DNA from: an uncultured Candidatus Saccharibacteria bacterium | GTDB lineage: Bacteria > Patescibacteriota > Minisyncoccia > CAIUEV01 > JAHKAQ01 | NCBI GenBank assembly: GCA_964598205.1 | Contig: CAZRBB010000005.1 | Coordinates: 5,721 to 69,720 of the forward strand | Length of the DNA: 64,000 nucleotides | Direction of reading: 5' to 3' | In this document: one piece after another, positions 3,286-28,378 of the stretch | How the letters are laid out: each line of letters starts with the position of its first letter | How positions within the stretch are numbered: position 1 is the stretch's first letter | The notes under the pieces: model-generated | Database searches by the model: none | What the model was told of the DNA's origin: nothing | Seen by the model: only the letters and a program-made list of their open reading frames with translations | Translations under genes and position numbers: made by a program

Positions 3286-3315
3286 CTTAAGTTTTAAAAA
3301 CTAAATTGTTAATTT

Positions 3316-4561: not shown

Positions 4562-4619
4562 ATAATTTTTTAAAACTTATTATTTATTAAATTAAGTTAT
4601 TTATCTTAATAAAACAACT

Positions 4620-5450: not shown

Positions 5451-5535
5451 CTTTTGTTCATTTAGAATTTAGGCGTTTAAGTGCGCAAATTCTTAACTTA
5501 ATTAAATAAACCAGTCAATTGACTGCTTTTATTAT

Positions 5536-5793: not shown

Positions 5794-5831
5794 AGCAGAA
5801 TATCTTCATCATAGCGAGGAAATAATGAATG

Positions 5832-6902: not shown

Positions 6903-6937
6903 AAATTATTTCTTCTCTAACTATCTTTACACTTTCT

Positions 6938-7100
6938 AACAGCTATGGTTTGTTTTTCCAAGGAGAGCATATCGGAAAAATTGCTCGGTTCCGGAATTTA
7001 TAATTTTTTCCAAATAAATTCCGGAAATTTTTCCGATATTCTAGCAAGATTTTTCGCCGGAAAAAATCGAGCGTCTCCTTAAAAACAAACCATAGCTGTT
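6938..7100. repeat. Perfect 20-bp inverted repeat (AACAGCTATGGTTTGTTTTT / AAAAACAAACCATAGCTGTT) enclosing an internal TTCCGGAA-rich nested palindrome
   Basis: The arms were read directly at 6938-6957 and 7081-7100. The ~123-nt interior holds a second hairpin, ttccggaatttat...ataaattccggaa. The element lies in the secD-secF intergenic region. Confidence 0.8.
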
Positions 7101-7117
7101 AAAAAGTTATTTGCTTG

Positions 7118-8827: not shown

Positions 8828-8886
8828 AGAACAGAATAATAAAGCTATCTTTTATTTGTGGCAAGCTTTTGCCTCTTAATTTCGCT

Positions 8887-11610
8887 TTATTGTTTTTTTC
8901 CGCAACACTTCTTATATTTCTTTCCCGATCCGCAGGGACAAGGACTGTTGCGACTTACTTTTGGAGTAAAATTAGCTCCAACATTAACACTAGCCGCTTC
9001 TGCGGTATCCTTTCCGGGAACGCCCTTTAATTCTAGTTTAGAAGGAGGAGGTAGAATATTTTTTTCTTCTTCCTCTTTTCCCTTAACCATTATTTCTGTT
9101 TTAAAAAGCGCTTCTACGGAAGAAAAAAGAACACTACTAAAAAAGTTTTGGAACATTTCAAAACCATCTTTTTTGTATTCCACCAAAGGATCTCTCTGAC
9201 CATATCCGCGAAGTCCAATTCCTTCTCGTAAATGTTGCATATTATCCAAATGCTCCATCCATAAAAGATCAGAATTTTTTAGAATAATCACCCGCTCCAA
9301 ACTGCGAAAAACACTGGCGCCAAACTTCTCTTCTTTCTCTTTGTAAAGAGAAAGAACATAGTCATTAATTGTCTTTTTGATTTCTTTAATTTTTTCTTCA
9401 CCACTAAAATGCGAATCATTAAAAATCTTCTCTAACTTTTCTTCTAAATCTTCTTTGGCATTAAAAACAGCCCGACAGTTTTCTTTGATTTCCCCTAAAT
9501 TCCAGGAGCGTTCTTCTTCTCCTAGGGTATGCGCCTTAACAACTCTCCCTACTACTTCTTTGATCATACCTAAAACATCTTCCTTCTGTAATAATCCTAA
9601 AAGATTTTCCCTTCGTTTTTGGTAAACTACTTCCCGTTGGCGGTTAATTACATCGTCGTATTCCAAAACATGCTTTCTAATATCAAAGTTAAAACCTTCA
9701 ATTTTTTTCTGCGCTGATTCTATGGAACGATTTACAATTTTATTTTGAATCGGCTGGTCTTCTGGTAGCCCCAAAGCATCCATCATTTGCTTTATCTTTT
9801 CTGAACCAAACCGTTTCATTAATTCATCTTCCAAGGAAACATAGAATTGCGAACTCCCAGGATCTCCTTGCCGACCAGCACGACCACGAAGCTGATCGTC
9901 TATTCGCCGTGCTTCGTGTCGCTCCGTTCCAATAATATGTAGTCCTCCCAAAGAAGCTACGCCCTCTTCTAGCTTAATATCTGTTCCTCGACCGGCCATA
10001 TTAGTAGCCAAAGTGATTGCTCCCTTTTCTCCCGCTTTGGCAATAATTAACGCTTCTTTTTCGTGATTCTTAGCGTTTAGGATTTCGTAATCCAACCCTT
10101 CTCGCAAAAGATACTCAGCCAGTTCTTCTGATTTTTCTACCGAAATAGTTCCCACCAAAACTGGTTGACCTTTTTTATTTCTTTTTTTGATTTCCTTAGC
10201 AATTGCTTCCATTTTCCCATGCTCGCTTTTGTATATTTTGTCTGAAAAATCTTGTCTTACCATTGGCCGATTGGTGGGAATAGAAAGAACGTCTAGTTTA
10301 TAGACCTTAAAAAGTTCTTCAGCAGAAGTCATTGCCGTTCCGGTCATTCCCGCTAATTTTTTATAAAGCCGAAAATAATTCTGAAAAGTGATTGTGGCCA
10401 GTGTTCGACTTTCTTTTTGGATCGCCACTCCTTCTTTTGCTTCTAGTGCTTGATGCAACCCCTCAGAAAAACGCCGTCCAGGCATTAAGCGACCAGTAAA
10501 ATCGTCTACAATAATCACTTCTCCTTCTTGCACCACATATTGCTTGTCTCTTTTAAAAATAGCGTGCGCTTTTAATGCTTGATTCAAATGGTGTACAAAC
10601 CGCATATTCTCCGCAGCGTACATATTACTAATACCCAATTTCTTTTCGATTTTCTCCATACCGCTTTCCGAAAGAGAAACCGCCTGCATTTTTTCGTCTA
10701 AATTGTAGTCCTTTTCCGGGATTAAAATCGGCACTACCTTGGCAAACTTAAGATAAAGTTTGTTAGATTCTTCGTCTGCGGCAGAAATAATTAAAGGCGT
10801 TCGCGCCTCGTCTATTAAAATACTGTCTACTTCGTCTACAATGGCAAAATTCAAATAATCTTTTTTAAAAAAGCCTTCTTTTTTTTCATCCTTTTTTTGT
10901 CGCTTCTCTTCTTCTTCTTTTAAAAGTCCCAAGTCTCTCACTTGAACCATTTGCGCCAAATCTAAAACCATATTGTCTCGCAGGTAATCAAAGCCAAATT
11001 CATTATTAGTCCCATAAGTAATATCGGCCGCATAAGCTTCTCCGCGAGGCACTGCTCTTAAATTATCGTACTCAATACTCACCTCTTCTTGATCCGATTT
11101 AACTAAGGAGGAATATAAGTAAGCAGTATCGTGCTGAACACAACCTACCGAAAGCCCTAAAAAAGAATAAACGGCTCCCATCCAATTAGTATCCCGCCTA
11201 GCCAAGTAATCGTTCACCGTAATTATGTGCACTCCCCTTCCTTCTAGGGCGTTTAGGTAAACAGCAAAAACAGCGGCTAAAGTCTTTCCTTCACCGGTTT
11301 TCATTTCTGTGATTTTCCCCTGATGCAATCCTATTCCTCCCATAATTTGTGCATCGAATGCCCGCTGACCAATTGCCCGCTTGGCTCCTTCTCGGCAAAC
11401 AGCAAAAGCCCCTGGAAGAATTTCGTCTAGCGTCTTTCCTTTTCTTATTTGCTCCTTTAATTCAAAAGTTTTAGAACGCAGTTCGTTGTCGGAAAGCTTT
11501 ATTAAATCAGCTTCTAGTCCATTTATCCTTTCAACCAAAACTTTTATTTTCTTTATTTCTTGATTGTTGGAATCAACAAAAATATTCTGGATTTTTTTTA
11601 AAAAATTCAT
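8887..11610 (-). CDS. secA: Preprotein translocase ATPase SecA
   Basis: 907 aa with DEAD-like motor motifs and a C-terminal zinc-binding tail CPCGSGKKYKKCCGKKQ. Confidence 0.95.
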   Translation of the reverse strand: MNFLKKIQNIFVDSNNQEIKKIKVLVERINGLEADLIKLSDNELRSKTFELKEQIRKGKTLDEILPGAFAVCREGAKRAIGQRAFDAQIMGGIGLHQGKITEMKTGEGKTLAAVFAVYLNALEGRGVHIITVNDYLARRDTNWMGAVYSFLGLSVGCVQHDTAYLYSSLVKSDQEEVSIEYDNLRAVPRGEAYAADITYGTNNEFGFDYLRDNMVLDLAQMVQVRDLGLLKEEEEKRQKKDEKKEGFFKKDYLNFAIVDEVDSILIDEARTPLIISAADEESNKLYLKFAKVVPILIPEKDYNLDEKMQAVSLSESGMEKIEKKLGISNMYAAENMRFVHHLNQALKAHAIFKRDKQYVVQEGEVIIVDDFTGRLMPGRRFSEGLHQALEAKEGVAIQKESRTLATITFQNYFRLYKKLAGMTGTAMTSAEELFKVYKLDVLSIPTNRPMVRQDFSDKIYKSEHGKMEAIAKEIKKRNKKGQPVLVGTISVEKSEELAEYLLREGLDYEILNAKNHEKEALIIAKAGEKGAITLATNMAGRGTDIKLEEGVASLGGLHIIGTERHEARRIDDQLRGRAGRQGDPGSSQFYVSLEDELMKRFGSEKIKQMMDALGLPEDQPIQNKIVNRSIESAQKKIEGFNFDIRKHVLEYDDVINRQREVVYQKRRENLLGLLQKEDVLGMIKEVVGRVVKAHTLGEEERSWNLGEIKENCRAVFNAKEDLEEKLEKIFNDSHFSGEEKIKEIKKTINDYVLSLYKEKEEKFGASVFRSLERVIILKNSDLLWMEHLDNMQHLREGIGLRGYGQRDPLVEYKKDGFEMFQNFFSSVLFSSVEALFKTEIMVKGKEEEEKNILPPPSKLELKGVPGKDTAEAASVNVGANFTPKVSRNSPCPCGSGKKYKKCCGKKQ

Positions 11611-11617
11611 AATTTTA

Positions 11618-11971
11618 TTAAAAACGAGCCCCCTTATCTATGGAGAAGAGTTTTTTTAGGCTCAAAGTTCCCCTCTTAAAAAGAGTTCTTTTCTTTTTTT
11701 GTTCTTTATTAATTTGCGATTTTAGTTGCTCAACCACTAAATCCCCGGCTACTTCTACAACTTCCGCCTTCTCTCTGGCCAAATAATGCTGACCAGATCC
11801 CCTAATCTGCATTTCCACTAGAAAAAAACCCTGCTTGTCTTTCTCTACCTCTATTTCTAAAATTTCTTCCTTATTCTTAAAAAATTTTTCTAACTTCTGA
11901 ATTTTTTCTTCTAAATAAGTCTTGTTTTTATCCGAAAGCACAACTCCCTTTTGGCGATACTTGATTTGCAT
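11618..11971 (-). CDS. hpf: Ribosome hibernation promoting factor / RaiA family protein
   Basis: 117 aa, MQIKYRQKGVVLSDKNKTYLEEKIQKLEKFF... is a typical YfiA/HPF beta-alpha-beta-beta-beta-alpha fold sequence. Confidence 0.8.
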   Translation of the reverse strand: MQIKYRQKGVVLSDKNKTYLEEKIQKLEKFFKNKEEILEIEVEKDKQGFFLVEMQIRGSGQHYLAREKAEVVEVAGDLVVEQLKSQINKEQKKKRTLFKRGTLSLKKLFSIDKGARF

Positions 11972-12078
11972 GGCGGTTTCTTAATATTTATTTCTATAGT
12001 TCTTAGGACTTACGCATTTGGTATAGCAGACCCTAATTTATTCTACTTGTTTTTCTTGGTAAAGCAATTCATCCAATT

Positions 12079-12400
12079 TTGAATTTCGAATCAACAGTTT
12101 TGATTCATAGCTTTTCTGAACCAATGTTCTTCTCCCAGTTCGTTCGTCCTCGACCAGGACTCGCTCCGCCTTGTTCCTGTTTTACTTTACCTAAAAAGCT
12201 TAAGACTTTAGAGACTAGAAGAATAACTGTTTCAAGCAGAATTGAGTTGTTTCTGCTTGAAACAGTTATTCTTCTAGTCTCTTTCTGTTGTGGGAACAAG
12301 GAGCCTCCTCTAAGAACATTGTTTCAGAAAAGCTTGATTCATAATTCTTTATTCAAAATTATTTCGAAATTCAAAATTAGTCATTCGTAATTAAATAATG
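12079..12400. repeat. Large palindromic intergenic element copy A (~320 bp) with a central perfect 31-bp-stem hairpin
   Basis: The hairpin gagactagaagaataactgtttcaagcagaa-ttgagttgtt-ttctgcttgaaacagttattcttctagtctc lies at ~12221-12292. The flanking arms are mutually reverse-complementary. A second copy is at 18700-19035. The ORFs 12079..12390 and 12105..12299 on this element are probably spurious. Confidence 0.8.
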
Positions 12401-12431
12401 TATACTTGCTTGGTTTTTATTAAGAAAAATC

Positions 12432-15248
12432 ATGAAAAAAATCGTTATTCAAGGAGCCAGAGAAAATAACTTAAAAAATATCAGTTTAGAGTTGCCTCGA
12501 GGCAAGTTTATTGCTTTTACGGGTGTTTCCGGTTCCGGCAAATCCACTCTAGCCTTAGACACCATTTTTGCCGAAGGTCAAAGAAGATACCTAGAAAGTC
12601 TTTCTAGTTACGCTCGGCAATTTTTAGGGCAAATGGACAAGCCAGATGTAGATTTAATAGACGGCCTTTCTCCCGCCATTTCTATTAGCCAAAAAACTGC
12701 CGGTGGCAATCCTCGCTCTACCGTTGGTACCGTAACCGAAATCTACGATTATCTGCGACTTCTTTTTGCCAAAGCAGGAACACCCCATTGCCTTTTTTGC
12801 GGAAAAGAAATCAAAAAAATCTCTAGCGACGAAATGCTCTGTGAAATCCTAGATCAATTCCCAGAAAAAGAAACCTTAGAAATTTACGCCCCAATCGTCC
12901 GTGGTCGCAAAGGAGAATACCAAGGACTCTTAGAAAATCTTTACCGAGAAGGTTACGAAGAAGCACTTGTTAATGGTCGCGTCTTTAAACTTTCCGCTCA
13001 TCGATTTGCCAACCTGGACCGTCATAGCCGTCATCGCATAGAAGTTTTGGTAGACAGACTAGAACTTGAACCCGGTAACTTAGAACGGCTAAACGAAAAT
13101 GTTGAGCAAGCACTAAAGCTAGCAGGAGGAACTGTTACTATTAAAAACAAAGAAAAAACAGCAACCTTTAATCGCAATCAAATCTGCCCCGATTGTAACT
13201 ACAGTTCGCCAGAAATTGAACCCCGCTCTTTCTCCTTCAACAGTCCATACGGCGCCTGCCCCGACTGTGACGGATTAGGAAGAAAACTAGAACTTTCCGA
13301 AAAATTAATTATTCCCGATTACACAAAAACTATTGGCCAAGGCGGTCTTTTGCCTTGGAGCTACCGAACAGGTAATTGGATTGCTTCTATTATTAACGCC
13401 GTGACCCAAGAATTAAAAATTTCTACTCACGATCGCTTAAAAGACATTCCCGCTCACAAGATGGAACGCCTATTAAAAGGCGACGAAGAACCAATCTTAA
13501 TCAAAGTTCGCCTTCATAGTCACCATCAACGAATTTGGCGCTTTCGTTTTTCTGGATTGCTAAATTATTTAGAAAAACGACACCTAGAAACCGATTCCGA
13601 AAAAGTAAGAAAAGAAATAGAAAAATACATGATTCGCCGAGTTTGCCCCGCCTGCCAAGGAGCCCGACTTAAAAAAGAAAGTCTCTTGGTTAAAATTGGT
13701 GGAAAAAACATTAGCCAAGTAACTGAATTTTCCATTCAAGAAGCCGTTAAGTTTTTTAGTGATTTAAAATTAACCAAAACTCAAGCAGCTATTGCCAAGA
13801 GTATTAATAAAGAAATTCAAAACCGACTTTCTTTCTTAGAAAATGTTGGCTTGTCTTACCTTTCACTAAGCCGCGCTTCTAATACCCTTTCCGGCGGCGA
13901 ATCTCAACGCATCCGCTTAGCCAGTCAAATCGGTGCTGGACTAACCGGCGTACTTTATATCTTAGACGAGCCGTCTATTGGTCTTCATGCCAAAGACAAT
14001 CAAAAATTACTCACAACTCTTCACCATTTACGCGATCTAGAAAATACCGTCATTGTAATTGAACACGACGAAGAAACTATTCTAAGTGCCGACTGGCTCA
14101 CAGATATTGGTCCAGAAGCCGGAAAAAAAGGTGGCAATATCGTGGTTAACGCCCCTCTAAAAAAAGCACTAAAAAATTCTGATTCGCTTACCGTCCGCTA
14201 TTTGACCGGTGAAGAAAAAATTGCCGTTCCCGCCACTCGTCGTCGAAAAGGAAAAAATATTTTAAAAGTAGTAGAAGCCGAAGAACATAACTTAAGAAAG
14301 ATTAGTCCAGAAATCCCGCTTGGTTCGTTTACGGTTGTTACTGGAGTTTCTGGTTCCGGCAAGTCTACCTTGGTCAACGAAATTATTTACAAAACACTTG
14401 CCCGCCATTTTTACCGATCCTTAGAACAGCCGGGGCGATGCAAAGAAATCAAAGGATTGCACCATTTAAAAAAAGTAATCAATGTTGATCAATCTCCTAT
14501 TGGTCGCACTCCCCGATCCAACCCGGCCACTTACACCAAGGTCTTTACCCCTATTCGGGAACTTTTTGCCCAAACCAAAGATGCCCGCCAAAAAGGTTTT
14601 GGACCAGGAAGGTTTAGTTTTAATGTTAACGGCGGTCGTTGTGAAAATTGCAAAGGAGAAGGGTTTCTTAAAGTATCTATGCAGTTTTTGCCAGATGTTT
14701 ACCTACCCTGCGATATTTGCCAGGGACAACGCTTTAAAAAGGAAACTCTAAAAATCCATTACCGAGGAAAAAACATTGCCGAAGTTCTAGGAATGACTGT
14801 AACCGAAGCTTTTGAATTTTTTCACGACATCCCTCAAATTGCCGATATTCTAAAAGTAATCGACGAAGTTGGTCTGGGATATATTCAATTAGGACAAGCA
14901 GCCACCACTCTTTCTGGAGGCGAAGCCCAGCGAGTTAAGCTAGCTTCGGAGCTGGCTAAAAGAAGTGTTGGTCAAACACTCTACATTTTAGACGAACCGA
15001 CTACGGGTCTTCACTTTGAAGATATTAAAAAATTACTTTCAGTTTTACAAAAACTAACCGATCAAAACAACACCGTCTTGGTTATTGAGCATAACTTAGA
15101 TGTAATTAAATCTGCCGATTGGATTATTGATCTTGGTCCCGAAGGAGGCAAGCAAGGCGGAAAGATCATTGCCCAAGGATCGCCAGAAGAAATCATTAAG
15201 TATCCCGAAAGTGCTACCGGCCAATTCTTAAAAGAAAAATTAGTTTAA
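12432..15248 (+). CDS. uvrA: Excinuclease ABC subunit A
   Basis: 938 aa with two ABC ATPase modules (GVSGSGKST twice), LSGGE signatures and zinc-finger Cys pairs. Confidence 0.95.
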   Translation: MKKIVIQGARENNLKNISLELPRGKFIAFTGVSGSGKSTLALDTIFAEGQRRYLESLSSYARQFLGQMDKPDVDLIDGLSPAISISQKTAGGNPRSTVGTVTEIYDYLRLLFAKAGTPHCLFCGKEIKKISSDEMLCEILDQFPEKETLEIYAPIVRGRKGEYQGLLENLYREGYEEALVNGRVFKLSAHRFANLDRHSRHRIEVLVDRLELEPGNLERLNENVEQALKLAGGTVTIKNKEKTATFNRNQICPDCNYSSPEIEPRSFSFNSPYGACPDCDGLGRKLELSEKLIIPDYTKTIGQGGLLPWSYRTGNWIASIINAVTQELKISTHDRLKDIPAHKMERLLKGDEEPILIKVRLHSHHQRIWRFRFSGLLNYLEKRHLETDSEKVRKEIEKYMIRRVCPACQGARLKKESLLVKIGGKNISQVTEFSIQEAVKFFSDLKLTKTQAAIAKSINKEIQNRLSFLENVGLSYLSLSRASNTLSGGESQRIRLASQIGAGLTGVLYILDEPSIGLHAKDNQKLLTTLHHLRDLENTVIVIEHDEETILSADWLTDIGPEAGKKGGNIVVNAPLKKALKNSDSLTVRYLTGEEKIAVPATRRRKGKNILKVVEAEEHNLRKISPEIPLGSFTVVTGVSGSGKSTLVNEIIYKTLARHFYRSLEQPGRCKEIKGLHHLKKVINVDQSPIGRTPRSNPATYTKVFTPIRELFAQTKDARQKGFGPGRFSFNVNGGRCENCKGEGFLKVSMQFLPDVYLPCDICQGQRFKKETLKIHYRGKNIAEVLGMTVTEAFEFFHDIPQIADILKVIDEVGLGYIQLGQAATTLSGGEAQRVKLASELAKRSVGQTLYILDEPTTGLHFEDIKKLLSVLQKLTDQNNTVLVIEHNLDVIKSADWIIDLGPEGGKQGGKIIAQGSPEEIIKYPESATGQFLKEKLV

Positions 15249-15250
15249 AA

Positions 15251-15505
15251 TCTAAATCTAAAACCCCAAAGTCAATATTCTCTTTTAGACAATAGCTCCC
15301 AAGAGACTCGCTTGGGCAGACAAGGCTCTGAGTCTGCCTACGCGAGTCTCTTGGGAGCTATTGAAGCTTAAAATAATATTTGAGGACTAAGGATATATCT
15401 GTTCAGAAGACTAAGAGCCTTGTCTTCTGAACAGATATATCCTTAGTCCTCTTTCCATAATAAAAGCATCTCAAAAGAATATTGGTTTTTGGGGTTTTAG
15501 ATTAT
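15251..15505. repeat. Nested palindromic element: an outer inverted repeat enclosing two perfect hairpins
   Basis: The outer arms are aatctaaaaccccaaagtcaatattctctttt (15255-15286) and aaaagaatattggtttttggggttttagatta (15473-15505). Inner hairpin 1 spans 15294-15359 with an 18-bp stem (agctcccaagagactcgc). Inner hairpin 2 spans 15382-15451 with a perfect 30-bp stem (gaggactaaggatatatctgttcagaagac). Confidence 0.8.
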
Positions 15506-15568
15506 TGCGCTTTTTTGCTATAATTTACCCGCAAGAATTAATCGTCGATTAAAATAAAAACACAGTTA

Positions 15569-15943
15569 ATGTTTCATTTTTTCTCTTTTTATCTTTCTTC
15601 TGTTTCCGAGACTGCTTCTTCTTGGATTGTCTCTTTTTTGTTCTTTTGGCTTGTAGAAGCTCCTCGCCGTTTTTGGGAAAAAGCAATTGCCATGTCCTTG
15701 GTTTTTGAAAAGTCTTGGGCCACCTATATTACTTTTAGAAATTTATTCGCCCCTCTTTATCAAGATTACTCAATAATCGGTCGAATAATTGGTCCATTTT
15801 TTAGATTAGGACGCATTGTCATTGGCATCTTGATCCATTTATTGCTCCTTTTATTTTGGCTTTTTTCGTTCCTTATTTTTTGCTTGGTGCTTTGGGGATC
15901 GCCGATTTTCTTTTTGATCAATCTTTTTATCTGGAATCAATAA
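15569..15943 (+). CDS. Hypothetical small polytopic membrane protein
   Basis: 124 aa, very hydrophobic with about 3-4 predicted TM segments. It lies immediately upstream of, and abuts, the Clp-like gene. Confidence 0.4.
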   Translation: MFHFFSFYLSSVSETASSWIVSFLFFWLVEAPRRFWEKAIAMSLVFEKSWATYITFRNLFAPLYQDYSIIGRIIGPFFRLGRIVIGILIHLLLLLFWLFSFLIFCLVLWGSPIFFLINLFIWNQ

Positions 15944-18676
15944 ATGAGTATTGAAAAAACAAAAAATAAAACAAAAGAGTTTTCTTGTTCTTCTTGCCAA
16001 GGAACCGGTCGTGCTGGTCAAACCGAAGGAACTTGCCCCAATTGTAATGGCAAAGGTTTTTACCAAAAAATCCGCGGATTGGTTCTTTTTTGGGGAAAAA
16101 AACAAAAAGGAATCCCTAGTGTAATTCAAAAATCATTAGAAAAAACTGCCGAAACAATAGAAATTATTATTTTTGTTTTAGGAACACTGTTTATTTTCTT
16201 GGGAGCAATTAATCTTTGGGACAATCTGAAAGCTCACGACAGTATTCTCTTTGATTTGAATCTATTTTTTGACATTTTTTTTGCAGGCTACGCCACCGCC
16301 CCTCTCTGGTTGGGAATATTTCTTCTTTTGGTTCTTTATTTTCATCGGTTCGTTTTTAGAAAGCCCAATCCTATTAACGCCAAAAATCCTTTTTACCGTT
16401 ATCTTTTAGCTGAAAACCCATTCTCCCAAGACAAAAAACAAACACCAAAAGCACTAGATATTTCCACTTCCGCTTCTAAAAATATTATTAAAATCCTCGC
16501 CGATTCATTAAATCTAGCTTTTAGGCGTCAACAAAAACCAGAACTTACTCATTTGCTTTTTGCCCTTATTCAAAAAAAAGAAATCCAGTCCGTCTTTTAT
16601 AAATTAGAAATTCCACCATTAGAATTCATTGAAGAGGCCTTAAAAAAATCTGCCGGATTCACACCGGAAAATTTTTTTCTACTTCCTAAAGAATATAAAA
16701 AAATTCTTTTAAGATCTTTCTGGGAAGCAGTAAGAAACGAAGACGAGACCATTCTCCCGGAACATCTTTTGGCGGCACTAGTCGATGAAAAAGACTTCAA
16801 ATTGGTCTTAAACCGCTTTGGGGTCACTGTAGAAGATTTTCGTAATGTTATTTTTTGGATCAAGTATCAAAAAAAGAGAACCGAAGGATTCCTAGAAGAA
16901 GACTCTTTTCGTCGACCACCGCATAGAATAATGAACAAAAGCTGGAGTGCCGTAATGACCAAAACCTTAGACGCTTTTTCCACGGATATCACCGACTACG
17001 CCCGAGCAGGATTGCTTTTCCCAATTGCCAACCGAGTAGAAGAAATTAGATCCTTAATTCAAATTCTAGAAAGAAGGAGTCGCAACAATGCCCTTCTAAT
17101 TGGAGAAGAAGGCAGCGGCAGAGAAACATTGGTCAGAGGCTTGGCCCAGAAAGTAGTTCGAGGAAAAATATCTGGATCACTTTTTGACAAACGAATCGTC
17201 AAGCTAAACTTGGCCAGCCTTGGTAGCGGTTTAGGATCTGATGGTGGTCTTCTTAAAAATAGGATCGAAGTTATTATGAGAGAAATAATCCACACCCAGA
17301 ATGTTATCCTTTATATTCCAGAAATTCACGAACTAGCCAAGGTAACTAGTTTTTCTTCTTTCGATATTCTTAGCTACCTAGCGCCGCTTTTCTCTCAAAG
17401 CATTATCCAAGTGATTGGTTCTACTTCCCAAGAATACTATCACGACTACTTAGAACCACGAGGAGAATTTGCTCAAATGTTCGACATTATTAAAATACCA
17501 GAACTCTCCTTGGACGCATCTCTTAAAGCAGTTTCTCTACGCGTACCACTCTTGGAAAGACAAGAAGGAGTTTCTATTTCTTACCGTGCCGCCGAAGAAG
17601 CCGTGAAAAAATCTGCTAGATACATTACCGACCGACTCCTTCCTCAAAAAGCCATAGACATTTTAGCCGAGGCGGTAGTTAGAAGTAAAAACATTAAAGG
17701 ACAAGGCTTTGTTACAGAACAAGAAGTCCAAGAAGTTTTTTCCGAAAAGACCGGTATTCCACTAACCGCCATGAAAGAAAACGAAGCCGATGAACTTTTG
17801 CTTTTAGAAGAAAAAATAAGAAAACAAGTAATCGGTCAAGAAAGAGCAGTCTCCGATGTTTCGGCCGCTATTCGCCGTGCCCGCGTAAGGATCGGAGAAA
17901 TAGAACGACCCATTGCCGTCTTTTTATTTGTTGGACCAACAGGTGTTGGTAAAACGGAATTAGCCAAAGCACTTGCCGAAATTTATTTCGGCGCCAAAGA
18001 AAAAATGATTCGCCTAGACATGAGCGAATTCGCCACTCCCTACGACATTGAAAGACTACTGGGCAATACTGGCGGTTCCGTCTCTGGACTCTTAACCGAA
18101 CAAGTTCGCAAAAGCCCCTTCTCCTTAGTCCTTTTAGATGAATTTGAAAAAGCTTCTTCTAATATTTGGGACCTCTTTTTACAAATCTTCGATGACGGCC
18201 GAATCACAGACGGTATGGGAAGAGTGGTCAACTTTACCAACACCATTATTATTGCCACTTCCAATGTTGGCAGTCGGCAAATTCTAGAAAACTTAGCTCA
18301 AGGAGGATCGCAAGAATCTATTCAAGAATTAGTTCAAAAAGAACTCCTCACCGTTTTCCGACCAGAATTTATTAATCGCTTTGACGATGTAGTAACTTTT
18401 AATCCGCTTTCCAAAGACAATATTAAAGAAGTTTCTCTTTTGGAAATTAAAAACTTAAACCAGCGACTTGGCGAAGAACAAGGATTAACCGTTGTCTTGG
18501 CCGAAGATGCACTAGACCATTTAGCAGAAATCGGCTATAGTCCCAAGTTCGGTGCCCGCTTCTTAAAACGCTTAATGAGAGAGAAAATAGAAGACGCTCT
18601 GGTAGTAGGAATCCTAAAGAATCAATACCCGCGGGGCAGCGTCGTTACAATTACGAAAGAACAGCTAGTAAAGTAG
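15944..18676 (+). CDS. Membrane-anchored Clp/Hsp100-family AAA+ protein with an N-terminal DnaJ-type CxxCxGxG zinc finger, a degenerate D1 domain and an intact D2 domain
   Basis: The N-terminus carries CSSCQGTGRAGQTEGTCPNCNGKGF, followed by two hydrophobic TM segments and a Clp_N-like repeat. The D1 domain reads LLIGEEGSGRETLV, where Walker A K/T are replaced, and ILYIPEIHEL, where the Walker B Asp is Pro. The D2 domain has GPTGVGKTELAKALA, LLDEFEKA and NTIIIATSN. No M-domain or IGF loop was seen. Confidence 0.8.
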   Translation: MSIEKTKNKTKEFSCSSCQGTGRAGQTEGTCPNCNGKGFYQKIRGLVLFWGKKQKGIPSVIQKSLEKTAETIEIIIFVLGTLFIFLGAINLWDNLKAHDSILFDLNLFFDIFFAGYATAPLWLGIFLLLVLYFHRFVFRKPNPINAKNPFYRYLLAENPFSQDKKQTPKALDISTSASKNIIKILADSLNLAFRRQQKPELTHLLFALIQKKEIQSVFYKLEIPPLEFIEEALKKSAGFTPENFFLLPKEYKKILLRSFWEAVRNEDETILPEHLLAALVDEKDFKLVLNRFGVTVEDFRNVIFWIKYQKKRTEGFLEEDSFRRPPHRIMNKSWSAVMTKTLDAFSTDITDYARAGLLFPIANRVEEIRSLIQILERRSRNNALLIGEEGSGRETLVRGLAQKVVRGKISGSLFDKRIVKLNLASLGSGLGSDGGLLKNRIEVIMREIIHTQNVILYIPEIHELAKVTSFSSFDILSYLAPLFSQSIIQVIGSTSQEYYHDYLEPRGEFAQMFDIIKIPELSLDASLKAVSLRVPLLERQEGVSISYRAAEEAVKKSARYITDRLLPQKAIDILAEAVVRSKNIKGQGFVTEQEVQEVFSEKTGIPLTAMKENEADELLLLEEKIRKQVIGQERAVSDVSAAIRRARVRIGEIERPIAVFLFVGPTGVGKTELAKALAEIYFGAKEKMIRLDMSEFATPYDIERLLGNTGGSVSGLLTEQVRKSPFSLVLLDEFEKASSNIWDLFLQIFDDGRITDGMGRVVNFTNTIIIATSNVGSRQILENLAQGGSQESIQELVQKELLTVFRPEFINRFDDVVTFNPLSKDNIKEVSLLEIKNLNQRLGEEQGLTVVLAEDALDHLAEIGYSPKFGARFLKRLMREKIEDALVVGILKNQYPRGSVVTITKEQLVK

Positions 18677-18699
18677 CTTCACTTAATTATTTTTAGACA

Positions 18700-19035
18700 A
18701 TTTCAAAAATTATCTCTACATTCTTTCCCGAACTAATGTTCTTAGAGGAGGCTCCTTGTTCCCGCTAACAGAAAGAGATTAGAGGAATAACTGTTTCAAA
18801 CAGAAACAACTCAATTCTGTTTGAAACAGTTATTCCTCTAATCTCTAAAACCTTAAGCTTTTTAGGCAGAGTAAAACAGGAACAAGGTGGAGCGAGGCCC
18901 GGTCGAGGACGAGCGTACTCCGAGAAGGACATTGGTTCGGGAAAGAATGCTTAATTCAAAAAATTCCTTAATTAATACGCTTAAGCTTTTTCAAAATTAA
19001 TCATTTGAATTTTAATCAAAATTAGTAATTCAAAA
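18700..19035. repeat. Large palindromic intergenic element copy B, the reverse-orientation homolog of 12079-12400
   Basis: Identity to the reverse complement of copy A is about 85-90%. It includes the hairpin gagattagaggaataactgtttcaaacagaa-acaactcaat-ttctgtttgaaacagttattcctctaatctc, which carries compensatory stem substitutions relative to copy A. Confidence 0.8.
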
Positions 19036-19039
19036 TTTA

Positions 19040-20098
19040 ATGAAGGTCCTTTCCCTAGAAACTTCCTGCGACGAAACTTCTTTTGCCTTAGGAGAAATCA
19101 ATAAAAGAAGCGGGCAATTGCTCACCTCTACCACTTTGTCGCAAACCGAAACCCATCGCCCTTTTGGCGGTGTTGTTCCCAATCTTACCGCCAGAGAACA
19201 TCTTAAAAATTTTAAACCACTACTCAACAAAACTCTTAAAAAAGCTGGAATTGAACTTTCCCAGATTGATCTTTTTTCCGTCGCTGCCGGACCAGGGCTA
19301 ATTCCAGCACTCTTAGTTGGGGTAAGTATTGCCAAGGCTTTTTCTTTTTTCTACCAAAAACCACTCTTAGGGTTAAACCACTTAGAAGCCCATCTTTATT
19401 CCGGTTGTTTAGAAAAATCAGGCCGAATTAATCCGGAACTAAAATTTCCCGCTATTGCTCTAATTGTTTCCGGTGGCCACACTCAACTTGTTCTTTTGAC
19501 CGATTTTTTTAATTATCAAATATTAGGAGAAACCATTGACGATGCCTGTGGCGAAGCCTTTGACAAAGCCGCCAGAATTTTAAAGCTAGGTTACCCAGGT
19601 GGCGCAGCAGTCGCCATAGCCGCCGAAAAAGGAGACCCTCATCGCTTTAACTTTCCCCGACCCATGATTCAAAACCCCAATCTTAATTTTAGTTTTTCTG
19701 GCTTAAAAACCGCCCTTCTGTATCAAGCCCAAAAGGAATTTTCTCTGAAAAAACACAATCCCCAAACTGTTTACGATCTGGCAGCTTCTTTTTCCGCCGC
19801 CGCCCTAGAAGTTTTGATTAAAAAAACCGAACGCGCTAGTCAAAAATTCAAACCAAAAACCTTAATCTTAGGAGGAGGCGTTTCTGCTAATAAAAACCTA
19901 AGAAAAGACTTTCAAGAATTGGGGAGCAAACTTGGTTGTAACCTAAAAATCCCCCTTCTTTCGTTTGCCCAAGACAATGCCGCCATGCAATTGCCACTTG
20001 TCTTCTTTCTAAATCAAAAAGATAAAATCAAAAAACTAGAAACAGACTTTTCAAAGATAGAAGCGAAAGCTAATATGGAGTTGGTTAGCTTAGTCTAA
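19040..20098 (+). CDS. tsaD: tRNA N6-adenosine threonylcarbamoyltransferase TsaD (Kae1/YgjD family)
   Basis: 352 aa, MKVLSLETSCDETSFAL...GVVPNLTAREH... together with the HLEAH motif. Confidence 0.9.
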   Translation: MKVLSLETSCDETSFALGEINKRSGQLLTSTTLSQTETHRPFGGVVPNLTAREHLKNFKPLLNKTLKKAGIELSQIDLFSVAAGPGLIPALLVGVSIAKAFSFFYQKPLLGLNHLEAHLYSGCLEKSGRINPELKFPAIALIVSGGHTQLVLLTDFFNYQILGETIDDACGEAFDKAARILKLGYPGGAAVAIAAEKGDPHRFNFPRPMIQNPNLNFSFSGLKTALLYQAQKEFSLKKHNPQTVYDLAASFSAAALEVLIKKTERASQKFKPKTLILGGGVSANKNLRKDFQELGSKLGCNLKIPLLSFAQDNAAMQLPLVFFLNQKDKIKKLETDFSKIEAKANMELVSLV

Positions 20099-20110
20099 GT
20101 TTAAAGAATT

Positions 20111-20794
20111 ATGAAAAGATTTGTTATTTTGGATTGGGACGACACTCTAATGGACACCCATTCCTTTAAAGCCGAGCTTAATAAAATCTTAGCTAGTCTA
20201 AACATCTCTCCTAAAAAAGTAGAGCAGTTAGTTAATCAAAAATTTATAAAAGAACGACTCCCCTCTTTTATTTATTCTCCAGAATTTGTTGGAAACACCC
20301 TCCTAAAAGCCGGTCTTGTTGATTCAGAAAAAAAACGCCTGCTATTAGGAAAAATAAACACTAGTCTAAAAGAATCTTTTAGATTCCTGCCAGAATCTTC
20401 TATTAAATTTATTTTAGAATTAAAAAATGAGTTTAAAATAGAACCAATTATCCTTTCTTTTGGAGATCAAAAATTTCAGGAAAATAAAATTAAAAATAGT
20501 AAGCTTTTAGAAAAGATAGGACCACTAGAAACCCATATTATCCAAGAAAATAAAGCCAACTATCTTGCCAAAAAAATTATTCCCCAAAAAGGTAATCAAA
20601 AAATTCTTTATTTTATCAACGACAAAAAAGCAGAAAATAAAGAGGTGGAAGAAAAAACCAATATTAAGACAATTTTAAAACTTCCCTTTTACAAAGAAGG
20701 AAAAACTAAAAAACTAAAAACAGCAACGAGATTAGAAGGCCAGGGATATACTTGGAAAGAAATTTTAGCTAAACTTAAACAATCTCTTTCTTAA
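20111..20794 (+). CDS. Putative HAD-superfamily hydrolase
   Basis: 227 aa. The N-terminal ILDWDDTL matches HAD motif I (DxDxT). The remainder is weakly conserved. Confidence 0.4.
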   Translation: MKRFVILDWDDTLMDTHSFKAELNKILASLNISPKKVEQLVNQKFIKERLPSFIYSPEFVGNTLLKAGLVDSEKKRLLLGKINTSLKESFRFLPESSIKFILELKNEFKIEPIILSFGDQKFQENKIKNSKLLEKIGPLETHIIQENKANYLAKKIIPQKGNQKILYFINDKKAENKEVEEKTNIKTILKLPFYKEGKTKKLKTATRLEGQGYTWKEILAKLKQSLS

Positions 20795-20810
20795 ACCATT
20801 AATTATTTTT

Positions 20811-22637
20811 ATGTGTGGCATTATTGGTTATGTCGGAAAAAAACCAGCAACACCCCTTTTAATTGCCGGCCTTCGGCGCTTGGAATATCGTGGCTACGAT
20901 TCAGCAGGAATTGCACTTCTTTCGCAAGGAAAAATCACTCGCATTCGCTCTGTGGGTAATATCCAAAAATTAGAAGAAAAGATTGGAAAAAAAATCCTCA
21001 CAGGCACCACTGGCATTGCTCATACCCGCTGGGCTACCCATGGAGGAGTTACTCAGGCCAATGCTCATCCTCATTTTGGTCCTAAAGAACACATTGCCTT
21101 AGTGCATAATGGCATTATAGAAAACTATCAAGAATTAAAAGCCAAATATCTTAAAGATCATCAGCTCTCTTCTGAAACCGACACTGAAGTCTTGGCTCAC
21201 TTGATCGAGCTTTTTTGTGAAAAATTACCACTTAAAAAAGCAGTAGAAAAAACTCTAAAAAAAGTTCGCGGCACTTATGGTCTAGTAGTTTTTTCCAAAG
21301 ATGAACCAAATAAGATTATTACTGCCCGCCGTGGTAGCCCGATTGCTATTGGCGTTGGCGATGATGAATATTTTGTAGCTTCAGACGCCTCGCCGATTCT
21401 CCCTTATACCAGGAAAATAATTTACCTAGACGACGGCGAAATGGCAGAGATTACTCCTCAAAGTTGCGATCTGTTTAAAATTGGAGTCGGCTCTATTACT
21501 AAAGAAGCCGAACAAATAGAATGGAACACCGAAGAAACCCAGAAAGGTGGTTTCCCTACTTTTATGTTAAAAGAAATTTTTGAACAACCGGCCGTCTTTT
21601 TAGATGCTATTCGTGGCCGGATTAGAGACAAAGAAGCCTCTGCTAGAATGGGAGGTTTTAACATGACAGACGAACAATCAAGAAAAATAAAAAAAATTGT
21701 TCTTATTTCTTGTGGCACTGCTAATTACGCCGCCATGATTGGTAAATACTTAATAGAAAAAATTGCTCATATTCCCACAGAAGTTGAGATTGGTTCTGAA
21801 TTCCGTTATCGCAATCCAATAATCAACAAAAGCACTTTAGTTTTTGCTATTTCTCAATCCGGAGAAACTCTAGACACCTTAGCCTCCCTTAAAGAAGCAA
21901 AACGAAAAGGCGCCCAGGTCCGAGGAATTGTCAATGTAGTCGGCTCTACCATTGCTAGAGAGGCAGGAGCCGGAACTTACATTCATGCCGGACCAGAAAT
22001 GGCAGTCGCTTCTACTAAGGCCTTTGTTAATATGATCGCCATCCTTGTTCTTTACGCCCTTTACTTTGGTCGCCTTAAAAAAACCTCCTTCGAAACCGGC
22101 GAACATATTCTAAAAGCCCTAAAAGAAATCCCAGAAAAAATGAACCGCATCCTTGCTCAGGCAGAAACTATTAAAAAAATAGCTAAAAAATATAAGCGGT
22201 TTGGAAATTTTCTTTTCTTGGGACGAGGCTTAAATTATCCCATTGCCCTAGAAGGCTCTCATAAATTAAAAGAAATTTCCTACATTCATTCTGAAGCTTA
22301 CCCTGCCGGAGAAATGAAGCACGGCGTTAATGCTCTTCTTTCTAAAGACTTTCCGGTTCTTGGCATTGCCACACAAAACGGCCTCTACGAAAAAATGATT
22401 TCCAATTTAGAAGAAGTTCGTGCCCGTCGCTCTCCTCTAATTGCTTTGGCTTCCGAAGGCGATCAAGAGATTGGAAAAATTGCCAACGATGTAATTTTTG
22501 TTCCCAAGACATTAGAAATCTTAGAACCTCTTTTAAACACCGTCCCCTTACAACTTTTCGCCTATTACCTAGCCACTGAATTAAAAAGAGATGTTGACCG
22601 TCCGCGCAACTTGGCCAAAAGCGTTACCGTGGAATAA
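20811..22637 (+). CDS. glmS: Glutamine--fructose-6-phosphate aminotransferase
   Basis: 608 aa with the MCGIIGY N-terminal nucleophile Cys, two SIS domains and the C-terminal ...KSVTVE. Confidence 0.95.
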   Translation: MCGIIGYVGKKPATPLLIAGLRRLEYRGYDSAGIALLSQGKITRIRSVGNIQKLEEKIGKKILTGTTGIAHTRWATHGGVTQANAHPHFGPKEHIALVHNGIIENYQELKAKYLKDHQLSSETDTEVLAHLIELFCEKLPLKKAVEKTLKKVRGTYGLVVFSKDEPNKIITARRGSPIAIGVGDDEYFVASDASPILPYTRKIIYLDDGEMAEITPQSCDLFKIGVGSITKEAEQIEWNTEETQKGGFPTFMLKEIFEQPAVFLDAIRGRIRDKEASARMGGFNMTDEQSRKIKKIVLISCGTANYAAMIGKYLIEKIAHIPTEVEIGSEFRYRNPIINKSTLVFAISQSGETLDTLASLKEAKRKGAQVRGIVNVVGSTIAREAGAGTYIHAGPEMAVASTKAFVNMIAILVLYALYFGRLKKTSFETGEHILKALKEIPEKMNRILAQAETIKKIAKKYKRFGNFLFLGRGLNYPIALEGSHKLKEISYIHSEAYPAGEMKHGVNALLSKDFPVLGIATQNGLYEKMISNLEEVRARRSPLIALASEGDQEIGKIANDVIFVPKTLEILEPLLNTVPLQLFAYYLATELKRDVDRPRNLAKSVTVE

Positions 22638-22680
22638 ATTACAAATTTTGATTTCCGAATTTCGATTAAAATTAGAAAAT

Positions 22681-22790
22681 CAAAATTCAAAACAATTTAT
22701 AAATTATAATTTCAAGCTTTAGTCAAAATTCAAAACAATTTATAAATTATAATTTCAAGCTTTAATCAAAATTCAAAATTCGTAATTCAA
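22681..22790. repeat. 43-bp AT-rich tandem repeat (~2.5 copies)
   Basis: The unit caaaattcaaaacaatttataaattataatttcaagcttta(g/a)t occurs at 22681-22723 and 22724-22766, followed by a partial third copy. Confidence 0.85.
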
Positions 22791-22810
22791 AATTAAGGTT
22801 AAGCCCCCTT

Positions 22811-23830
22811 ATGAACAACAATCCCAATCAAAAATCTACCCCCAAAAACCTAGTATTAATCGGCGGTACCGGCGCCGCAGTGATTGGTAAAGTCGCCAAA
22901 AAAAATCCTAATTGGCTCGTTTCTCTTTTGGTTTCTTTGGTAGACGATGGCGGTTCTACTGGTCGCCTGTCTAAAACCCTAAACATCCCTCCGGTTGGCG
23001 ATATCCGTAAAGCCTTAGCTGCCCTTTCTACTTGGTCCCCCAAAGCCATTACCCATTTTGAAGCTCGCTTTCTAGACGGAGAATTGAAGTGCCACCCCTG
23101 GGGTAATCTATTTCTGGCAGGACTCCTGCTCCAAAACAAAGATATCAATCAAACATTAAAAAAAGCCCAAAAAATTCTAAAAACCAAAGGCCAAGTAATC
23201 ACCACCACCAAAGAACCGACCAAGCTCAATACTCGTTTTAAAAACGGAAAAGTAATTAAAGGAGAAAATAATTTAGATGAAAATAAAATCACCAGTTTTG
23301 GGCCACCGGTAGAATATTTCTTAACTACCCCCACACCCAAAGCCAACCCCAAAGCAACTCAAGCACTTAAAAAAGCCGACTGGATTGTCTTGGGGCCGGG
23401 AGATTTAGGAGCCAACACCATTGCCCCTATTCTAACCCCAGGCATTGCTAGTGCCATTCGCCAATCAAAAGCCAAAATAGTTTACATAGCTAATCTAATG
23501 ACAAAACTCGGAGAGACCGATCAATTAACCCTGTCCGACTGCTTGCGCCTAATAGAAAAAACCCTCCAAAGAAAAATTGATTACCTTCTTTTGAACCAAG
23601 CCCCTCTTCCCCAAAAAGCGCTCTCTCGCTACCATAAACAAGGAGAAGTTCCTTTTCCTTTAGATTTTTCTCTGCTTAAAAAAGAAAGCTATCAAGTTTT
23701 TTTGGCCGATCTTCTAAATCCCCAACCGCAAGAAAAATCCACCGCCGACAAGCTGCGTCGTAGTTTATTAAGGCATTCTGGAGAAAAAACTGTTCGCCTT
23801 CTAGATAAAATAATTAAAGAATTAAAATAA
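22811..23830 (+). CDS. YvcK/CofD-family protein (UPF0052, gluconeogenesis factor-like)
   Basis: 339 aa. LVLIGGTGAAV...VSLVDDGGSTGRLSK matches the YvcK/CofD GGGTG and DDGGSSG motifs. Confidence 0.75.
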   Translation: MNNNPNQKSTPKNLVLIGGTGAAVIGKVAKKNPNWLVSLLVSLVDDGGSTGRLSKTLNIPPVGDIRKALAALSTWSPKAITHFEARFLDGELKCHPWGNLFLAGLLLQNKDINQTLKKAQKILKTKGQVITTTKEPTKLNTRFKNGKVIKGENNLDENKITSFGPPVEYFLTTPTPKANPKATQALKKADWIVLGPGDLGANTIAPILTPGIASAIRQSKAKIVYIANLMTKLGETDQLTLSDCLRLIEKTLQRKIDYLLLNQAPLPQKALSRYHKQGEVPFPLDFSLLKKESYQVFLADLLNPQPQEKSTADKLRRSLLRHSGEKTVRLLDKIIKELK

Positions 23831-23838
23831 TAAACCCC

Positions 23839-24510
23839 ATGGAAAAAATTAATTTCGCTGACTTTTTTGGGGAAATTCCCCAGGAACTAAAACCACTTCT
23901 AGAAGAATCAAAAAATATCTGGGACATTTTTAAAAACCTGAATTCTTTTTTGGAATCTTTAGTCAAAGAGCAAAACGATACCGATAACCCCTCTTATTTT
24001 GGAAAAATCGGTGACGCCTATTTAGCAGAAAATGTTTTTATTGGCGAAGGAACTGTTGTTGAACACGGCGCCATGATCAAGGGTCCAACCTTTATTGGTC
24101 AAAATTGTCAAGTAAGGAGCGGCGCTTATATCCGCGGCGGCGTTTTTACCGGAGACAATGTGATTCTTGGCCACGCCACCGAAATTAAAAATTCTATTTT
24201 ACTTGAAGGCACCAATGCTGGCCATTTCAACTACTTGGGAGACAGCTTTTTAGGGAAAGAGGTCAATTTAGGTGCTGGCACAATTTTGGCCAACCTCCGC
24301 TTTGACAAGCAACCAATTGTTGTGGGAGATTTTAACACTGGCCTAAAAAAGCTTGGTGCCATCTTAGGAGATTATTCTCAAACAGGCTGCAACACCGTTC
24401 TTAACCCAGGAACTTTCTTTAAACCCAATACTTTTTATAGTGGCATGACCCTAAAAGGAGGAATCTATGACAAGGAAGCTATTAAAGAGATTATTCGGGC
24501 AAATAAATAA
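23839..24510 (+). CDS. Left-handed beta-helix (hexapeptide-repeat) transferase-family protein
   Basis: 223 aa. The C-terminal two-thirds consists of [LIV]-G-x-x-x-x hexapeptide repeats (IGEGTVV, IGQNCQV, LGHATEI, LGAGTIL...). Confidence 0.6.
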   Translation: MEKINFADFFGEIPQELKPLLEESKNIWDIFKNLNSFLESLVKEQNDTDNPSYFGKIGDAYLAENVFIGEGTVVEHGAMIKGPTFIGQNCQVRSGAYIRGGVFTGDNVILGHATEIKNSILLEGTNAGHFNYLGDSFLGKEVNLGAGTILANLRFDKQPIVVGDFNTGLKKLGAILGDYSQTGCNTVLNPGTFFKPNTFYSGMTLKGGIYDKEAIKEIIRANK

Positions 24511-24556
24511 TCGTCACTTATCCTAGAATTATTTTTCGTTTAATAATTAGAATTCC

Positions 24557-27223: not shown

Positions 27224-27256
27224 ATAGAAAAAATAAATAGACTTCTACATAGAAAA

Positions 27257-27302
27257 AGAGGATTAGGCGTACAATTAAGTAAATACGCCATAATCCTCTT
27301 TT
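27257..27302. terminator. Putative bidirectional intrinsic terminator hairpin between valS and a convergent small gene
   Basis: The imperfect stem agaggattaggcgta / tacgccataatcctct is followed by TTTT. Confidence 0.45.
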
Positions 27303-27334
27303 AGCCGAACAAAAAACGGAAGATCAGATAAAGA

Positions 27335-27652
27335 TCAGATTGCGAAAAACTTATTCCGTTCTTCGTCCGGAACCTTTGTTCCGCAGATAGCACAAAAGTT
27401 GGCTAGCTGCGTAATTTTATGCCCATTCGGGCATTGCACACTTACATCTAATATTTGCTGCTTCCCGCACTCAGGGCAAAAATTTGCCTCGGGATCCCAA
27501 GTGGCATGCCGGCGGGATTCGAAATCGTTCTTATTTTCTCTTCGGATAATAAATATCCAAAGAAACACCCCCACCAAAAAAGTCATAATCACAAAAAACA
27601 TTAAGATGTAATCGAACATATACTTTCCTCCCTTAAAAAAATTAATGTGCAT
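27335..27652 (-). CDS. Hypothetical membrane-anchored zinc-ribbon protein
   Basis: 105 aa with an N-terminal TM helix and two CxxC pairs (CPECG...CPNGH; CAICG). Confidence 0.4.
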   Translation of the reverse strand: MHINFFKGGKYMFDYILMFFVIMTFLVGVFLWIFIIRRENKNDFESRRHATWDPEANFCPECGKQQILDVSVQCPNGHKITQLANFCAICGTKVPDEERNKFFAI

Positions 27653-27813
27653 TTTTCCGCTCTCCTGCCAGAAGACTTTTCTTCTGCCGAGCCATCCTTT
27701 ATGCCATAAAAAACAGCAAATGTAAACAAAATTAAAATAAAGACTTGATTGTTAAAAATCATTTTTATATAATGGGAGAAAGCCGAAAATAATTAGTAGC
27801 TTATTTTTTCCTC

Positions 27814-28368: not shown

Positions 28369-28378
28369 GGTCGCTAAA

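Follow-up and report, generated by a model that had tools for sequence, protein, structure and literature searches.

The DNA examined in this study, a stretch of 64,000 nucleotides referred to below as the window, comes from contig CAZRBB010000005.1 (positions 5,721 to 69,720) of an uncultured Candidatus Saccharibacteria bacterium (GCA_964598205.1), and its gene content is typical of the Candidate Phyla Radiation (CPR); the window also matches a metagenome contig from JGI. We focus here on two adjoining genes of the forward strand. The larger one (15944..18676) starts with ATG and encodes a 910-residue, membrane-anchored AAA+ protein of the Hsp100/Clp family, as judged from Pfam, NCBIfam, alignment to Protein Data Bank (PDB) entries and a structure model. 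The smaller one (15569..15943), an open reading frame (ORF) for which a family hidden Markov model (HMM) was built, encodes 124 residues, and its TAA stop codon directly abuts the ATG of the Clp gene. The small ORF is preceded at a distance of ~45 nt by a promoter-like site (15496..15524, forward strand; TTTAGA and TATAAT with a spacing of 17 nt and a TG element), a weak match to the consensus at 10 of 12 positions that is listed as the candidate promoter of the operon, and terminator scans were uninformative. The evidence presented below indicates that the two genes encode a predicted membrane-embedded Hsp100/Clp ATPase and a small membrane partner, encountered here, among records carrying a taxon label, only in Patescibacteria.

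The layout of the 910-residue protein is that of a class I Hsp100, in which an N-domain is followed by two AAA+ modules (D1 and D2) and the D2-small domain. Pfam recognizes Clp_N at residues 261-303 (E = 3.7e-9), which bears out the Clp_N-like repeat noticed in the initial annotation of this DNA, then AAA_lid_9 at 537-604, AAA_2 at 655-815 (E = 2.6e-49) and ClpB_D2-small at 822-903 (E = 3.6e-18). The N-terminal domain as a whole covers residues ~173-316 (16460..16891, forward strand), as delimited by the Clp_N match, by the alignment to the ClpA model, which begins at residue 178, and by helical repeats in the structure model. Between this domain and D1 lies a family-specific linker motif, M-N-[KR]-[AS]-W-[ST]-A (residues 330-336; 16931..16951, forward strand), which at least 80% of the family members retain and canonical references lack, with N331, W334 and A336 invariant in the ortholog alignment. 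The AlphaFold2 model, computed from a 63-sequence alignment, has a mean predicted local distance difference test score (pLDDT) of 88.5 and a predicted TM-score (pTM) of 0.76, and Foldseek superposes it on ClpC/ClpB protomers of the PDB over ~570 residues with a target-normalized TM-score of 0.85 and a root-mean-square deviation of 3.8 A, the identity to the solved ClpC/ClpB chains being 31-40% in these alignments. The predicted structure is that of a ClpB/ClpC protomer, and by fold and domain order the protein is a member of the Hsp100/Clp superfamily.

Genes of this kind are publicly annotated as “ATP-dependent Clp protease ATP-binding subunit ClpC,” and the best PDB sequence match is indeed ClpC (E = 1e-120), ClpB being matched as well; both facts speak for taking the label at face value, that is, for an ordinary ATPase subunit of the ClpP protease of the ClpC/ClpA type. 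Against this stand the curated models. Those of NCBIfam for ClpB, ClpA, ClpG, ClpV and ClpK all match the protein, the ClpA model in one continuous stretch (178-904), and every score falls far under its curated cutoff: 443.4 bits vs. 993.15 for ClpA (TIGR02639), 509.8 vs. 1232.1 and 419.2 vs. 1417 for the two ClpB models (TIGR03346 and NF008118), and 322.7 vs. 1350 for the ClpC/ClpA group (NF008263). Measured against the features that define ClpB, ClpC, ClpA and ClpE, the protein is none of these, and Pfam finds no Peptidase_M41 or other peptidase domain in it.

The part preceding the Clp body begins with two CxxCxGxG repeats (residues 15-38, CSSCQGTG...CPNCNGKG; 15986..16057, forward strand). 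The Pfam family DnaJ_CXXCXGXG matches residues 12-44 weakly (20.4 bits vs. a cutoff of 32.7) and a match to Anti-TRAP is likewise sub-threshold; C15, C18, G20, G22, C31, C34 and G36 are invariant among orthologues down to 31% identity, and the AlphaFold2 model shows beta strands at 11-49. The DnaJ zinc-finger domain proper (PF00684) consists of four repeats with two zinc centers, whereas two repeats are present here, and by its sequence the unit is a single putative zinc center of the DnaJ/Anti-TRAP type. Downstream of it lies a predicted transmembrane (TM) hairpin (TM1 ~71-93 and TM2 ~113-138; 16154..16357, forward strand), for which hydropathy, the charge rule and AlphaFold2 served as the basis of prediction. 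Kyte-Doolittle means over 19 residues reach 2.48 (71-89) and 1.96 (113-131) and never exceed 1.33 past residue 160, the net charge changes from +4 ahead of TM1 to -3 between the helices and back to +3 beyond TM2, and the model places helices at 59-96, 105-113 and 119-138, the first and last with high confidence, before the Clp body begins. The two helices are joined by a short conserved loop helix (NLFFDIFFAG), and within the clade loop and TM2 are highly conserved (NLFFDIFFAG..PLWLG), with W122 invariant. This charge distribution fits a hairpin with both ends inside, and because both ends would be cytoplasmic, the AAA+ body, like the zinc finger, is predicted to lie in the cytoplasm, with the N-terminal two-helix hairpin tethering it to that side of the membrane.

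How far these features extend beyond a single protein was assessed by a census in which key alignment columns were counted in 113 non-redundant relatives and in five canonical ClpB/C references. An N-terminal hydrophobic segment is present in 112 of the 113 relatives and in none of the five references; the zinc finger occurs in 64. The initial annotation had described the paired Cys/Gly repeats, two hydrophobic segments (~65-95 and ~110-135) and a membrane tether, and had proposed a search for orthologs with the same N-terminal architecture; the search returned such relatives, all three descriptions hold, and the alternative that the hydrophobic segments are buried helices was not borne out.

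The first AAA+ module (16961..17698, forward strand) has lost key elements that ATP hydrolysis would call upon. In the HMMER alignment to Staphylococcus aureus ClpC and Escherichia coli ClpB, the Walker A motif GEPGVGKT is replaced by GEEGSGRE (17102-17125), with arginine for the lysine and glutamate for the threonine, and the Walker B motif ILFIDELH by ILYIPEIH (ILYIPE for ILFIDE, 17306-17323), with proline for the aspartate. The arginine fingers RR (ERRF) read QM (AQMF), and in family alignments the pore loop (A/T)K[YF]RGEFE (KYRGEFE) reads GSDGGLL. The same holds across the family: no relative has an intact Walker B DE pair (0/113), the aspartate being proline in 90, while an intact Walker A GK[TS] is found in 13, an arginine at either finger site in 3, and the pore aromatic in 4. 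With the Walker A lysine and threonine, the Walker B aspartate and the arginine fingers all replaced, D1 is judged from these columns to be unable to hydrolyze ATP and to be a pseudo-ATPase throughout the family.

The second module (AAA_2 and D2-small together, 17801..18652, forward strand) presents the opposite picture at its catalytic site, where GPTGVGKT, LLDEFE, N774, R812 and R872 are all in place. The Walker A lysine and threonine, the Walker B aspartate and glutamate, the sensor-1 asparagine and the arginine finger are each kept in 113/113 relatives and the sensor-2 arginine in 112, by which D2 is, on the evidence of the alignment, a strictly conserved ATPase. Its pore-1 loop is truncated (LGNTGGSVSGL, residues 706-716; 18059..18091, forward strand): where the references have GAPPGYVGYEEGG, this protein has GNTGGSVSG, shorter and without an aromatic residue, the GYVG element being deleted. 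A loop of the GYVG type (Gly-aromatic-hydrophobic-Gly) is found in only 6 of the 113 relatives, and the median loop length is 10 residues as against 14 in the references. Two hallmarks of class I Hsp100 proteins are therefore lacking despite the shared layout, namely aromatic pore-1 loops in both modules (KYR in D1, GYVG in D2) and hydrolysis competence of both modules, for which D2 alone qualifies. The initial annotation had called D1 catalytically dead on the basis of its Walker motifs and D2 fully canonical, and had derived from the two a single-ring-active unfoldase or disaggregase. Realignment finds no intact residue at the D1 positions in question and adds the lost arginine fingers, which strengthens the view of D2 as the only active ring; as to D2, the catalytic residues are as described, and the pore loop is not. 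The proposed activity leaned on a canonical D2, and with pore aromatics kept so rarely in either ring it no longer follows. In ClpB the D2 pore tyrosine is needed for threading and disaggregation. Classical hand-over-hand threading is unlikely, because the pore-1 aromatics are lost in both rings, and the sequence makes it doubtful that the protein unfolds or disaggregates its substrates by threading in the classical way.

Two couplings of known Hsp100 proteins are missing as well, both as first annotated. The region corresponding to the M-domain, residues 398-529 of ClpB, has no counterpart in the HMMER alignment and is reduced to 18 residues (at most 21 among the relatives), compared with 71-141 in the five references and 140-141 in the two of ClpB type. 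No ClpP-docking [LIVM]G[FL] loop was found in D2, where ClpC has AGFGG and the aligned segment here is shorter (A-QGG), and the tripeptide occurs in 1/113 relatives. Among the ORFs of the window no gene for ClpP (CLP_protease gave no match), ClpX, Lon or FtsH was found, a result that bears on the window and not on the remaining genome. A docking loop missing in 112/113 relatives, together with the dead D1 and the low scores against the curated models, makes service as an ordinary ClpP subunit highly improbable.

The small gene upstream was described initially as a polytopic membrane protein abutting the Clp gene; the abutment is exact, while one or two membrane helices are likelier than several. 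Residues 31-82 of the 124-residue protein carry a net charge of +5 and a nearly invariant motif, PLYQDYSIIGRIIGPFFR, and the last ~40 residues are strongly hydrophobic, as expected of a membrane anchor. The AlphaFold2 model has three helices at a moderate pLDDT of 69.9, and the protein looks like a C-terminally anchored one with one or two membrane helices. It has no match in Pfam, NCBIfam or PADLOC and no fold match in the PDB, and its homologues are without exception annotated as hypothetical protein. A homologous ORF of ~120-125 codons lies directly upstream of Clp orthologues in other contigs, and in 77 of 84 related loci the partner HMM picks out the ORF that immediately precedes the Clp gene on the same strand; contig ends cut most of the remaining 7. 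The gap between the two genes is typically -4 to +60 nt, and the pairing persists where the Clp proteins share only ~30% identity and where the other neighbors differ. The reverse test, seeded on the small protein in metagenome contigs and counting loci with enough DNA, found a Clp-family gene directly downstream of the partner in 31/37 loci; two of the misses have only ~400-460 nt of downstream DNA. The 124-residue gene is a conserved operon partner, co-inherited with the Clp gene.

Four genuine homologues of the partner have no Clp gene next to them and carry the motif FSPLYQDYTPIGYFFGF (L122 3429-3791, L129 305-655, L131 1533-1886 and L094 157-537), so the pairing is not absolute; three of them (L122, L129 and L131) lie just downstream of an M16-peptidase-like gene. 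These genomes may carry the Clp gene at another place; alternatively, the partner may also serve another function. Clustering of the genes around the related loci revealed no conserved neighbor besides the partner, and links to a cell-division cluster, to Hsp20 and to Sec genes that had been considered were dropped on this ground. Membership of an anti-phage defense system was set aside too: PADLOC returned only generic AAA_2-domain matches over D2 (DolB and PDC-M37B) and nothing specific, and the flanking genes are housekeeping genes.

With residues 1-340 as the phmmer query, a database of 1.84 billion cluster representatives yielded 64 clusters at 50% identity (E <= 1e-3), mostly of 880-950 residues, and two family-specific peptide patterns identified at least 197 relatives among GTDB species, one genome being taken per species. 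Of the loci listed, all 79 that carry a taxon label belong to Patescibacteria, and a minority of the loci are titled only “bacterium”; the labels, taken as given in the records and including third-party assemblies, comprise Moraniibacteriota, Paceibacterota, Parcubacteria, Wolfebacteria, Harrisonbacteria, Torokbacteria and “uncultured Saccharibacteria.” The family occurs in two architectures, one of ~905-950 residues with the zinc finger and one of ~835-850 residues without it, in which the hairpin lies at ~20-70, and the partner gene accompanies both. The shorter clade (loci L038-L086) includes a complete genome of Wolfebacteria (CP011209.1, L045); a PolX/PHP-like gene is found downstream in 28 of its loci and a gene for a ~229-residue membrane protein in 23. 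An N-terminal-profile search added no further members and left a clear gap in score between the family (at least 316 bits) and canonical ClpB (at most 259 bits). Conventional ClpB is known from the CPR too: P0113, named as a Minisyncoccales protein, is ClpB-like and has both sets of Walker motifs as well as GYVG in D2, and P0118, P0119, P0097 and P0108, which bear no taxon name, are similar. Because a CPR lineage has a conventional ClpB, the membrane-anchored family is regarded as a specialized paralogue. Full-text searches of the literature returned neither a description of the present family nor usable information about clpP in such organisms; the Clp genes listed in a paper on TM7x carry APY09_ locus tags and are taken as host genes.

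The number of catalytic motifs lost could suggest a decaying or mis-annotated gene, either one with a wrongly assigned start codon or a functionless clpB paralogue in degeneration. Decay, however, would hardly leave a protein conserved over its full length in >100 species, nor D2 catalytic residues kept in 112-113 of 113 relatives, and a wrong start is at odds with the conserved N-terminal Cys/Gly positions and hairpin; the confident structure model and the conserved operon partner point the same way, and we regard this explanation as barely credible.

We consider it about an even bet (a probability of roughly 0.5) that the operon encodes a ClpP-independent, D2-powered remodeling complex embedded in the membrane, which engages its targets in a non-canonical manner. 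The Clp protein would assemble into a ring, as the invariance of the D2 arginine finger, which acts in trans, leads us to infer, and because the anchor is N-terminal, the face of the ring bearing the dead D1 and the N-domains would point to the membrane. D1 would then serve as a structural ring and D2 as the only motor. The partner would dock through its conserved cytoplasmic motif and its membrane anchor, as a co-assembled subunit or as an adaptor. ATP turnover by D2 alone would drive conformational work on membrane-embedded or membrane-proximal proteins, in quality control or assembly, independently of ClpP and DnaK and without canonical threading by tyrosine loops, while in the clade that possesses it the zinc finger may recruit clients together with the N-domain. 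Several points weigh against this proposal: hexamer formation, partner contact and the nature of the clients are all inferred, the neighborhoods apart from the partner offer no hint of function, the zinc finger is absent in 49 of the 113 relatives and, because so large a clade lacks it, is not central to the core mechanism, the pairing of the two genes has the exceptions given above, and translocation by a ring without pore aromatics could still occur in a non-canonical way.

A tentative and distinctly less probable alternative keeps to the function first proposed, a membrane-tethered unfoldase or disaggregase with a single active ring, or a dislocase of membrane proteins, in which D2 drives threading through the channel and nothing is fed to ClpP. 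The Hsp100 fold with its intact D2 ATPase site is compatible with it, the N-terminal anchor would turn the entry face of D1 to the membrane, and other chaperones bind clients through elements such as Clp_N and the zinc finger of DnaJ type. FtsH uses a geometry in which the entry face looks toward the membrane. A gene for the small heat-shock protein Hsp20, located 9 kb downstream (27814..28368, forward strand), would suit such a chaperone function; it is not a conserved neighbor. Further objections come from the deletion of the D2 GYVG and the replacement of the D1 pore tyrosine, here and in ~95% of the relatives, and from the lack of an M-domain for coupling to DnaK.

The loss of the pore loops beside the strict retention of the ATPase site would also be in keeping with an ATP-driven switch or mechanotransducer that is not a protein remodeler, in which D2 cycling would be passed on through a rigid dead D1 to at least 12 membrane helices and the helices of the partner. 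A membrane assembly would be gated or reshaped in this way, much as with Torsins and their membrane activators or in FtsEX-type mechanotransmission. The conservation of the hairpin loop and TM2 suggests that the membrane part does more than anchor the protein, and the small membrane partner is largely obligate. On the other hand, the extracytoplasmic loop has only ~20 residues, no conserved neighboring gene encodes a candidate effector, and Clp_N, with the zinc finger in this clade, is more typical of client binding, for which reasons this option appears unlikely. More speculative, and quite improbable at present, is a specific form of it, in which the Clp ring with its 12 hairpin helices and the partners would be a new kind of non-threading, membrane-embedded AAA+ machine that gates or reshapes an assembly such as a channel or surface structure by D2 turnover acting through the rigid D1; it would possibly be specific to CPR episymbiosis and a bacterial counterpart of the Torsin-activator principle.

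Comparison with known systems helps to place the remodeling complex preferred here. With ClpC and ClpB the family shares Clp_N, D1, D2 and D2-small, and the D2 catalytic residues are identical; it differs in having the hairpin, the N-terminal zinc finger and the gene for the small membrane partner, in having lost the D1 Walker A and B motifs, the D1 arginine fingers and both pore-1 aromatics, and in lacking the M-domain, with no coupling to DnaK or MecA through it, as well as the ClpP loop of ClpC. The ClpA-ClpS system resembles it in the absence of an M-domain and in a gene of ~100-120 codons placed directly upstream of the Hsp100 gene, as in the clpS-clpA operon, whereas the partner described here is a membrane protein without similarity to ClpS (no Pfam match), and the ATPase is membrane-anchored, has a dead D1 and lacks the IGL loop for ClpP. 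Like ClpE and ClpX, the present Clp ATPase has a Cys4 zinc-binding unit at its very N-terminus. ClpE and ClpX are soluble, ClpP-binding proteins that have retained their pore tyrosines; here the unit is of the CxxCxGxG type of DnaJ and Anti-TRAP and is followed by a membrane hairpin. FtsH likewise has a cytoplasmic AAA+ ring that is fixed to the membrane through two N-terminal transmembrane helices, and membrane proteins act as its modulators (HflK/C and YccA), but FtsH belongs to another AAA+ clade and combines a single AAA module and an aromatic pore loop with a fused M41 protease. Torsins are relatives of the Clp/Hsp100 D2 module that have no aromatic pore loops, are associated with membranes and need membrane-protein partners (LAP1 and LULL1). 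They differ in being eukaryotic proteins of the endoplasmic reticulum lumen with a single module and no arginine finger of their own, whereas D2 of the present family has kept its finger in 113/113 relatives and is accompanied by a dead D1 ring. The resemblance to FtsH and to Torsins is only one of analogy.

Several other features of the window were recorded. A SecD homologue on the reverse strand (7118..8827) contains a peptidyl-prolyl isomerase domain of the PPIC type (Rotamase), inserted at residues ~150-242 after SecD_1st and before the P1 head; it is unusual for a foldase to be fused to a part of the translocon. Two more unusual fusions on the same strand join a Memo-like domain to the capsule-synthesis domain PGA_cap (32919..34703) and a uridine kinase/PRK domain to CYTH (42640..43827). 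At 45275..46583 on the forward strand, a gene for a sigma factor of the extracytoplasmic function (ECF) type is followed after 5 nt by an ORF of 238 residues without a Pfam match, which could encode an anti-sigma factor. The region 56782..63000 (reverse strand) contains large ORFs of 567, 517, 407 and 560 residues, three of them without a Pfam match at E <= 1e-5, and the one of 407 residues includes a Hint module of the intein/hedgehog type. GC skew is negative in nearly all 2-kb bins of 1..64000 irrespective of gene orientation, its cumulative value falls almost monotonically to -6.2, and no switch marking a replication origin or terminus is visible within the window.

Hsp100/Clp machines are, in the textbook view, soluble threading motors. 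The module characterized here probably represents a previously undescribed type of membrane machine and not an ordinary Clp chaperone, and the database labels “ClpC” and “Clp protease ATP-binding subunit” are misleading for its Clp genes; new family models for the two genes could be built on it. The losses in D1 and in the pore loops and those of the M-domain and the ClpP loop, together with the retained D2 and the membrane partner, suggest that the Hsp100 scaffold can be reused for a different mechanical work at membranes, by a two-gene module that, among the taxon-labeled records encountered here, occurs only in the CPR, organisms whose cell-envelope biology is almost unknown.

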